20,399 nucleotides of DNA from the UHGV virus genome UHGV-0020221; one strand, 5' to 3'. Position 1 is the first letter of the stretch. Each line of letters starts with the position of its first letter. The notes under the pieces were generated by a model. It was not told the origin of the DNA, made no database searches, and worked only from the letters and a program-made list of their open reading frames with translations. The position numbers and the translations under genes are program-made. This stretch comes from a virus. Positions 15,959 to 16,444 of this stretch are shown in pieces.

Positions 15959-16444
15959 CTATCTGATATTACTGCTACTGTTGCATGTTACCGTGTTTCC
16001 AAATCCTGAATTGCAGTTTGTATATGTGTCAACGCGTGTTGGGTAAGGTTGAGTTATAACAGGCTGGCGCGCTTTTTGCTCGATCGCTTGCATTGTGTTT
16101 ACAGCCTGATAATTCAATAAAGCCTGCTGGAATGCTTGGCTTTGTGCTATTTGTTGTGCTTGTTCTTGGCTTTGTAATTGAACATAAAGATTCTGAAGTT
16201 CAAGTCTTGCCTGTGTGTCACTTATCTTGCCTTCATCGACACCTTGCCCGAGCATCTTCGCAGCAAGGACATACAGCTTAGGTGTTGGTGCTGATGCCAT
16301 GCGAGAGTCGTTCTTCAAGCTGGCATCAAGGCAATTAGCCATATCGCTAAGCTTTGGATAGCGTTGCTCGCAACTTGCCTGATAGTCGCTTACTTTTGCG
16401 CACCCAGCCAGCAGAAGCGGGATAATTAACAGTGATTTTTTCAT
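15959..16444 (-). CDS. Putative outer-membrane lipoprotein (161 aa), accessory gene; candidate superinfection-exclusion factor
   Basis: Minus-strand ATG at 16444 preceded by AAGGAG. N-terminus MKKSLLIIPLLLAGC is a signal peptide with lipobox (LAGC); Ala at +2 after the Cys suggests outer-membrane sorting. Gln-rich predicted coiled-coil middle, Cys-containing ends. Opposite strand to the structural operon; AT-rich. Confidence 0.7.
   Translation of the reverse strand: MKKSLLIIPLLLAGCAKVSDYQASCEQRYPKLSDMANCLDASLKNDSRMASAPTPKLYVLAAKMLGQGVDEGKISDTQARLELQNLYVQLQSQEQAQQIAQSQAFQQALLNYQAVNTMQAIEQKARQPVITQPYPTRVDTYTNCNSGFGNTVTCNSSSNIR

Follow-up and report, generated by a model that had tools for sequence, protein, structure and literature searches.

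What fills the slot beside gene 16 in the P22-like phages that lack sieA? About one third of the sequenced P22-like phages carry sieA (only 22 of 66, all of them infecting Salmonella; PMC10883804), and the content of the slot in the rest is the question we address here with the viral genome UHGV-0020221, a stretch of 20,399 nucleotides (the window) that is, over its whole length, the late region of a P22-like (Lederbergvirus) prophage with its integration site beside dacD and sbmC. A sequence-only reading of the window had drawn attention to a lipoprotein-type open reading frame (ORF) at 15959..16444 on the minus strand, which encodes 161 amino acids (aa), begins MKKSLLIIPLLLAGCAKVSDYQASCEQ and has its stop at 15959..15961, and had suggested that the product excludes other phages. 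We found the gene to be real and under purifying selection, and its product to be one of three unrelated envelope proteins that are alternative cassettes at one lysogen-expressed slot beside the ejection-protein gene 16. The exclusion idea is a plausible candidate explanation, and we put the probability that the protein is a superinfection-exclusion factor at roughly 0.42. The family is uncharacterised and, by the searches made here, is not a member of SieA, Llp/Cor or Ltp. The slot and its borders are laid out as follows.

14098..15945, plus strand: gene 16 homologue, an ejection or DNA-transfer protein (phrog_770 "DNA transfer protein", E 7.5e-280)
15959..16444, minus strand: lipoprotein precursor coding sequence, 161 aa plus stop, a member of phrog_6067
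16451..17268, no strand assigned: P22-identical block with the 3' part of mnt, orf59a, a bidirectional terminator, hkcC, the putative promoter PsieA and the Shine-Dalgarno (SD) sequence (blastn, 96% against NC_002371 ~13834..14650)
16471..16509, minus strand: putative promoter, counterpart of the sieA promoter of the P22 record (alignment with P22 and HK620, one mismatch)
17536..19527, plus strand: tailspike, gene 9 homologue, the far border of the variable "ant moron" slot (Pfam Head_binding, 4e-66)

In the P22 record, gene 16 is followed by sieA on the opposite strand, with an annotated promoter ~30 nt upstream, and then by a terminator, orf59a and mnt; the lipoprotein gene likewise lies between gene 16 and mnt/gene 9, behind the putative PsieA. 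The identity to P22 breaks off 6 nt short of the lipoprotein ATG and, on the P22 side, 4 nt short of the sieA GTG. Having the gene at the P22 sieA position was a claim of the sequence-only reading, and the 96% identity to P22 up to the SD sequence makes the link tighter than the window by itself had shown. A promoter/SD block of ~65 nt is common to P22 sieA, HK620 hkcB and the lipoprotein gene with one or two mismatches, and the putative promoter within it contains an extended −10-like TGGTATCCT at 16471..16479. The third gene behind this block, hkcB of HK620 (AF335538; 2141..2470, minus strand), encodes 109 aa with an N-terminal transmembrane (TM) segment and then a charged helical region. 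SieA, HkcB and the lipoprotein have no detectable sequence similarity to one another: SieA and the lipoprotein gave no BLASTP alignment at E ≤ 100, the FxRYPxEAxxFNK motif of SieA is absent from the latter, and SieA has four TM-like windows, whereas the mature part of the lipoprotein has no TM segment. The same reading had expected a solution distinct from SieA, and the two proteins are indeed unrelated by BLASTP and differ in that the lipoprotein is not polytopic. Relatives of hkcB are present in epsilon34, CUS-3 and SEN22, and hkcB is a third candidate envelope or exclusion cassette.

Leavitt et al. (2024) found that 85 bp of upstream DNA together with sieA, in single copy, suffice for at least 10^7-fold exclusion (PMC10883804). 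Given this sufficiency and the identity of the block to P22, the lipoprotein gene stands behind DNA whose P22 counterpart drives the expression of the neighbouring cassette in lysogens. Of the marks of a moron, the position and the variability between phages are present; downstream of the lipoprotein gene no terminator was identified, and the promoter is taken from its identity to PsieA.

The association of the gene with the slot was consistent across other phages. Carriers in the phage database were Escherichia phages Gally and vB_EcoP-720R6, Salmonella phages VSe13 and "MS2 LVA" and Proteus phage Brookers, and in the records whose annotation was read (Gally, VSe13 and Brookers) the gene had the gene 16 homologue on one side and mnt/arc on the other and was encoded on the opposite strand. 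A scripted tblastn survey covered 80 IMG/VR viral contigs and 10 further loci, from Escherichia, Salmonella, Proteus, Providencia, Serratia, Tatumella, Citrobacter and an Enterobacteriaceae metagenome-assembled genome. The order in every case was tailspike (minus strand), optional mnt (plus), lipoprotein gene (plus) and gp16 (minus). The flanking gp16 was of at least three types (window-like, Gally-like and a third at ~40% identity), which rules out linkage to one gp16 allele. Upstream, the loci fell into at least four classes, with the hkcC/PsieA block (17–18 loci), a Gally-type divergent gene, a further one of VSe13 type or mnt directly upstream, and TGnTATCCT preceded the gene in 50 of the 79 IMG/VR loci. 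A private promoter travelling with the gene was rejected; only ~20–35 nt upstream are common to the arrangement classes, so that expression depends on the recipient context, either the PsieA block or the mnt operon. In 30 of the 63 loci with mnt upstream, 70 nt separate the mnt stop from the lipoprotein ATG, and likewise in Brookers and the Serratia prophages, a spacing that suggests co-transcription with the lysogen-expressed maintenance repressor mnt.

Between tailspike and gp16 the slot measured 831–5655 nt in 75 loci and contained no ORF of at least 90 aa with at least two TM-like windows (P22 SieA scores four), which indicates that the lipoprotein and SieA-like proteins do not co-reside. 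The ant moron is known for its high flux, being described in 2008 as having "ten types in sixteen genomes", of which only the P22 version had been studied (PMC2629481).

The orientation and expression of the gene also bear on a possible role in the lytic cycle, where the protein would stop progeny from wasting their DNA on debris and vesicles, as T5 Llp does late in infection, or would modulate envelope events at lysis. Such a role fits the envelope location of the product, the up-regulation of sieA on induction (PMC10883804) and the retention of the gene in the free-virion isolates Gally, VSe13, vB_EcoP-720R6 and Brookers. The gene, however, is read against the direction of the late operon, either from a promoter of the lysogen type or with mnt; the phage already has the spanins Rz and Rz1; and the primary receptor is the O-antigen, which a periplasmic protein could not mask. 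We consider the lytic role improbable.

The ORF itself was confirmed. Both flanking late genes, gp16 and the tailspike, lie on the plus strand and the lipoprotein gene is antisense to them, as had been stated from the sequence; the gp16 and lipoprotein stops are separated by 13 nt. An AAGGAG SD sequence at 16455..16460 (minus strand) stands 10 nt 5' of the lipoprotein ATG, and an SD within 22 nt of the ATG was found in 70 of 79 IMG/VR loci. The Prokaryotic Genome Annotation Pipeline (PGAP) uses the identical start in WP_016231948.1, a "hypothetical protein" of E. coli Ecol_881, whose chromosome has 100% identity over the gene. A 178-aa reading from an ATG at 16495 was ruled out by the homologues of other genera, which begin with MKK; the variation of the upstream DNA among phages and the position of the SD also speak against it.

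The product matches phrog_6067, a family of unknown function, over its full length (E 2.9e-109, residues 1–161 against profile positions 1–161 of 161), and distant family members match this profile too. In a collection of 5.8 billion proteins we found 90 protein clusters across the Enterobacterales, with sources in Escherichia (871 and 153 sequences in the two top clusters), Citrobacter, Serratia, Klebsiella aerogenes, Cronobacter, Yersinia, Pectobacterium, Morganella, Providencia and Tatumella, and an exhaustive profile search of 1.84 billion representatives gave 242 clusters at E ≤ 1e-3, of which 94 reached E ≤ 1e-10. Of 5426 complete E. coli genomes, 186 (3.4%) carry the gene, in each case on the chromosome. 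Among 27 relatives of 50–97% identity, the lipobox Gly-Cys, Ala16, Cys25, Cys38 and Cys154 are without variation. The Nei–Gojobori ratio of nonsynonymous to synonymous divergence (dN/dS) is 0.047 against Gally (dS 0.23) and 0.041 against VSe13 (dS 0.56), and these comparisons of close relatives give no sign of diversifying selection. One might still regard the gene as a chance ORF or a decaying remnant without function, as it has no known domain and a strict scan called no promoter. The conservation pattern refutes this: a dN/dS of 0.04–0.05 at dS up to 0.56, an invariant lipobox and invariant Cys in the 90 Enterobacterales clusters, and the 242 family clusters of the exhaustive search leave the idea next to no probability.

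The encoded protein is built, from its N terminus, of the following parts.

16400..16444, minus strand: signal peptide, residues 1–14 (MKK, hydrophobic SLLIIPLLL, lipobox LAG), and the predicted lipid-modified Cys15 (codon 16400..16402)
16154..16399, minus strand: N-terminal helical domain, residues 16–97, with Cys25 and Cys38, the conserved core of the whole family (AlphaFold predicted local distance difference test, pLDDT, 84–93)
16070..16153, minus strand: Gln-rich continuation of helix 76–125, residues 98–125, a stalk or linker of variable length (pLDDT ~50–76)
15962..16069, minus strand: Pro-rich linker (126–137) and C-terminal beta-hairpin (138–160) with Cys144 and Cys154 in a TxC...GN..xC motif (hairpin pLDDT ~65)

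In the Enterobacterales, a lipobox leads to processing by Lgt, LspA and Lnt, and a +2 residue other than Asp to transfer to the outer membrane by the Lol system. The N terminus has the make-up of a lipoprotein-precursor signal, in which the MKK n-region and the hydrophobic SLLIIPLLL precede LAG and Cys15, with Ala at +2 and Lys at +3; the +2 rule predicts Lol transfer of the protein to the outer membrane. G14, C15 and A16 do not vary in the 27 close relatives. A lipobox is present in 206 of the 238 family members of at least 110 aa, and the residue at +2 in these is Ala in 145, Val in 19, Thr in 17, Ser in 7 and Asp in none. The sequence-only reading had given these coordinates and had recognised the signal peptide and the lipobox, LLAG before Cys with Ala at +2, all of which can be read in the sequence; its assignment to the Lol-sorted, outer-membrane type agrees with the Ala at +2 and with the absence of Asp there from all 206 lipobox members.

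Cysteines occupy positions 15, 25, 38, 144 and 154 of the window protein, and exactly four Cys in addition to the lipobox one were found in 171 of the 206 lipobox members. Paired cysteines in exported proteins are normally oxidised by DsbA. That Cys residues lie near both ends of the mature protein and that its central segment is rich in Gln had been described correctly: the Gln-rich string QLQSQEQAQQIAQSQAFQQALLNYQ starts at residue 89, and residues 84–124 contain 14 Gln (34%) against 6 in the other 120. An AlphaFold2 run with a 63-sequence alignment (mean pLDDT 71) predicted a compact helical N-domain at residues 18–96 (84–93), one long helix from 76 to 125, the last helix of the domain, which continues as a stalk to 125 (50–76), a linker of low confidence at 121–136 and a beta-hairpin at 138–160 (~65). 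The same segment had been called a coiled coil, and this was not borne out, since the best heptad register places only 5 of 15 strong hydrophobic residues at a/d, a weak signal.

Across the family the helical N-domain is the part most retained. Most of the distant members are 125–140 aa long and match only profile positions 1–100, and C25, C38, Y58, A79 and L83 are invariant in 63 diverse members; in distant members the lipid-modified Cys and the C-terminal Cys pair (T-x-C...G-N..x-C, often Tyr-terminated) are ~90% conserved. The stretch linking the N-domain to the C-terminal hairpin is highly variable in length, often not Gln-rich, and short or absent in many distant members, and the central Gln-rich segment therefore holds for the window protein and fails as a feature of the family, where it is a variable linker. 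Among close relatives we observed at least two C-terminal modules (residues ~127–161; 15962..16066), one with VITQPYPTRVDTYTNCNSGFGNTVTCNSSSNIR and the other with TYIPPVQLQNNNVTTNCTTYGNQTRCQSY, and the presence of distinct modules on near-identical N-domains points to recombination within the lipoprotein gene.

One subgroup departs from the lipid anchor. The Serratia/Hafnia members (P0261–P0267) have no lipobox and have instead an ordinary signal-peptidase-I signal, with VASA before and AS after the cleavage site. In Serratia fonticola prophages (L008 9001..9465 and L009 2419..2883), this lipobox-less variant stands directly after mnt, in the P22-like slot. A soluble variant in the same slot makes it seem that the periplasm, and not the anchor, is what matters.

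Searches for known families gave little. Pfam (E ≤ 1) and NCBIfam had no match for the window protein, and the same libraries had nothing for its distant relatives; PADLOC-DB had no match at E ≤ 0.1 for the protein, its neighbours or two distant relatives. A PHROG scan returned phrog_6067 alone, with no check of whether the library contains an Llp entry. The matches of a PDB profile search were chance coiled coils at E ≥ 0.09, and Foldseek found nothing at E ≤ 0.001 in BFVD or in PDB, the latter with no check of whether the library contains Llp or Ltp chains. Against N15 Cor, hhalign aligned 22 signal-peptide columns only (probability 32%) and against lambda Bor 14 signal-peptide columns only; Pfam Lambda_Bor (PF06291) and TraT were not matched at E ≤ 1. 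These searches bear on the idea of a periplasmic immunity protein or inhibitor acting against an envelope-acting toxin or enzyme (a colicin, a peptidoglycan hydrolase of a type VI secretion system or a lysozyme), by which the lysogen would be protected from bacterial competitors. A small helical, disulfide-containing architecture would suit such a protein, as would the existence of both soluble periplasmic and lipid-anchored versions and the association with mobile elements and defence islands. Yet neither the sequence nor the fold matches known immunity or inhibitor families, and no cognate toxin gene adjoins it in the loci examined. We regard this as very improbable.

The family is mostly, though not only, found on mobile elements, and its distant members outside P22-like phages occur in the following contexts.

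P0234, P0236, P0237 and P0200 (~25–30% identity): fixed neighbours of a core of serine recombinase and primase/helicase (DUF3854 with AAA_25, or Prim-Pol/VapE)
P0252 (130 aa): in a tyrosine-integrase/AAA_25 element
P0165: near an integrase and an M78 peptidase gene
P0099 and P0258, short forms: among housekeeping-looking genes, one with uvrC, UDG, EarP and bio genes and the other with a CoA-transferase gene, and no mobile-element gene in view

Downstream of the recombinase/primase core the cargo varies and includes a restriction-modification pair with AIPR and TIR, a resistance-nodulation-division (RND) efflux operon and others. The metagenome contigs L004, L005 and L019–L023 showed, in one case, an N6_N4 methylase with a BamHI-like endonuclease, AIPR and TIR and, in another, the RND efflux operon. 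The islands themselves have the look of a small integrative element that has not been described. Short-form relatives of 127–141 aa, without the Gln-rich stalk, were seen at L007 6208..6633 and L107 2473..2856. The chromosomal-looking contexts suggest a chromosomal ancestor, and a host envelope lipoprotein may be the source of the phage form. Homology to a host housekeeping lipoprotein had been named beforehand as grounds against an exclusion role, and this is touched on in part: chromosomal-looking contexts were seen, at ~30–40% identity.

These contexts are pertinent to another explanation, lysogenic conversion, in which an outer-membrane lipoprotein expressed from a lysogen slot alters the envelope to the benefit of the host (serum or complement resistance, adhesion, stress) in the manner of lambda Bor and F TraT. 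A small lipoprotein of outer-membrane type in a prophage-expressed slot, common in human and animal E. coli isolates, would be expected of such a factor, chromosomal-looking distant relatives suggest a general envelope role, and the strong purifying selection agrees with it, as does the lack of an arms-race pattern among close relatives. However, the protein is not homologous to Bor or TraT (no Pfam match, and only signal peptide in hhalign), and within the Enterobacterales it is confined to one slot of one phage type, whereas bor and lom are spread over many prophage types; on unrelated islands, moreover, it stands beside the island core and adjoins defence genes. We judge a host-fitness role unlikely.

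Exclusion, to return to the reading we prefer, is made plausible, as a candidate, by the finding of lipoprotein and envelope-protein cassettes at the same slot. The constancy of that slot, the export signal and the distant relatives on other mobile elements, one of them with restriction-modification, AIPR and TIR cargo, also count in its favour. A mechanism can be proposed on this basis. The prophage would make a small exported protein, Cys15 would be lipidated through Lgt, LspA and Lnt, and with Ala at +2 the Lol system would move it to the inner leaflet of the outer membrane. DsbA would oxidise the two Cys pairs (25/38 and 144/154). The compact helical N-domain, within a few residues of the anchor, would sit near the inner leaflet, while the protruding helix (~29 residues, ~40 angstroms) and the Pro-rich linker would hold the disulfide-stapled hairpin deep in the periplasm. 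From the periplasmic face of the outer membrane, the protein might then block the gp7/gp20/gp16 trans-envelope DNA conduit of incoming podophages (needle, then conduit) or, alternatively, act from within on a secondary receptor or another outer-membrane component that ejection needs as a trigger, and disable or alter it in the way that T5 Llp affects FhuA. In either case it would be the outer-membrane counterpart of what SieA achieves at the inner membrane.

Several observations weigh against this reading. Sharing the slot with sieA does not prove a common function, as the ant moron holds unrelated genes in rapid flux (PMC2629481), and a consensus sigma-70 promoter scan called no site upstream of the lipoprotein gene. 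No family was matched in Pfam, NCBIfam or PADLOC and no structural neighbour was seen, and in the literature we found no report of the lipoprotein family or of phage lipoproteins in this slot. The Serratia/Hafnia subgroup shows that outer-membrane anchoring is not universal, and the anchor may be dispensable. In the model, the folded domain begins ~3 residues past Cys15, unlike in many outer-membrane lipoproteins, which have long tethers. Finally, distant members that look chromosomal (~30–40% identity in the N-terminal domain) may indicate a general envelope role of the fold.

A broader version of the proposal is more doubtful. In it, the family would found a group of periplasm-facing "gatekeeper" proteins of mobile elements that, anchored in the outer membrane, block the podovirus ejection conduit, or an outer-membrane step that sets it off, from the outer-membrane side, and the protein would be a counterpart of SieA with a distinct mechanism. 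The corollaries, that the island relatives do the same job against other invaders and that the gene-16-proximal slot is a hot-swap site for exclusion factors working at different envelope layers, are possible and, to our minds, similarly hard to count on.

The genes between the lipoprotein gene and the tailspike are the following.

16479..16844, plus strand: hkcC, 121 aa, with an HExxH motif (HECAH), divergent from the lipoprotein gene (phrog_1365, 99% identical to HK620 hkcC)
16833..16852, no strand assigned: bidirectional terminator-like hairpin, counterpart of HK620 tORF59A
16858..17037, minus strand: P22 orf59a homologue, 59 aa, YjzC-like (weak Pfam hit, E 0.0017, below the Pfam cut-off)
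17137..17388, minus strand: mnt, maintenance repressor of immI (Pfam Arc and Repressor_Mnt)

From its motif, hkcC might encode a small metallopeptidase-like protein. Its ORF is intact in P22, where it is not annotated in RefSeq NC_002371, and its first codons overlap the putative PsieA promoter. Bidirectional terminator-like hairpins, at 16833..16852 and 17128..17147, stand on either side of the orf59a homologue. The immI region is reduced, with no arc or ant between mnt and the tailspike start at 17536, and the target of Mnt here may be read-through into the tailspike gene. At the other end of the window, the i-spanin Rz (117..596, plus strand; Pfam Phage_lysis 7e-29) contains an embedded Rz1 o-spanin ORF (349..555, plus strand), which is Pro-rich and has the lipobox VVGC, and between the lysis and the packaging genes there is an ORF for a regulator of the Rha family (943..1485). 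The lipoprotein gene was ruled out as an o-spanin gene; Rz and Rz1 stand in the lysis cassette, and the lipoprotein gene is 15 kb away in the ant moron.

The locus adds two things to what is known of P22-like phages. Behind a single promoter/SD block, at least three envelope proteins unrelated to one another replace each other, with the exchange point precisely at the start codon, and one of them is a widespread lipoprotein, found in 3.4% of complete E. coli genomes and eight enterobacterial genera, with no known domain or fold. If the protein does exclude phages, podovirus DNA delivery would for the first time be seen to be blocked from the outer-membrane side; the protein would provide a tool to dissect how the gp7/gp20/gp16 conduit crosses the periplasm and would matter when therapeutic and typing phages are chosen for use on E. 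coli lysogens. Even without such an effect, clinical E. coli would have in it an abundant surface-layer protein that is expressed from a prophage.

Known systems resemble the lipoprotein in different respects. Lambda Bor and F TraT are outer-membrane lipoproteins expressed from a lysogen or plasmid, a location predicted for it as well, but are not homologous to it; TraT also mediates surface exclusion. HK620 HkcB and other ant moron genes are alternative occupants of the slot behind the same promoter block, whereas HkcB is bitopic, with its N-terminal TM segment, is not a lipoprotein and is unrelated in sequence.

T5 Llp and Cor (of phi80, N15 and T1) are outer-membrane lipoproteins that inactivate FhuA; like the window protein, with its predicted outer-membrane location, they are small and phage-encoded. 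T5 Llp is disulfide-dependent and acts from the periplasmic side, and in mechanism these proteins set the precedent for an exclusion step at the outer membrane. The phages that encode Llp and Cor are FhuA-dependent siphoviruses, in which the genes stand beside those for receptor binding, whereas the lipoprotein belongs to O-antigen-specific podoviruses and lies beside ejection genes; its mature form is ~2 times as long, homology to Cor was not found, and Llp is set apart from it only by the library scans. The sequence-only reading had cited Cor and Llp as precedents, and they serve well as a mechanistic analogy from a different phage lipoprotein; homology is another matter, since Cor aligns only by its signal peptide.

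P22 SieA (types A, B and C) is nearest in genomic setting: it occupies the same slot abutting gene 16, is antisense to the late operon, has the same promoter and SD DNA, and is an envelope protein whose presence and that of the lipoprotein are mutually exclusive. It differs in being a polytopic inner-membrane protein with a cytoplasmic FxRYPxEAxxFNK motif and a demonstrated function (PMC10883804), whereas the lipoprotein has a predicted cleavable lipoprotein signal and a predicted outer-membrane or periplasmic location. The closest mechanistic analogy is Ltp, a lipoprotein of the Streptococcus prophage TP-J34 that binds the tape measure protein and so prevents the injection of DNA (cited in PMC10883804). 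Ltp differs in its Gram-positive host and its fold, and the target proposed for the lipoprotein is the set of podovirus ejection proteins; Ltp is nonetheless, as is predicted or proposed here for the window protein, a lipid-anchored, mostly helical prophage protein aimed at the DNA-delivery machinery and not at the receptor.

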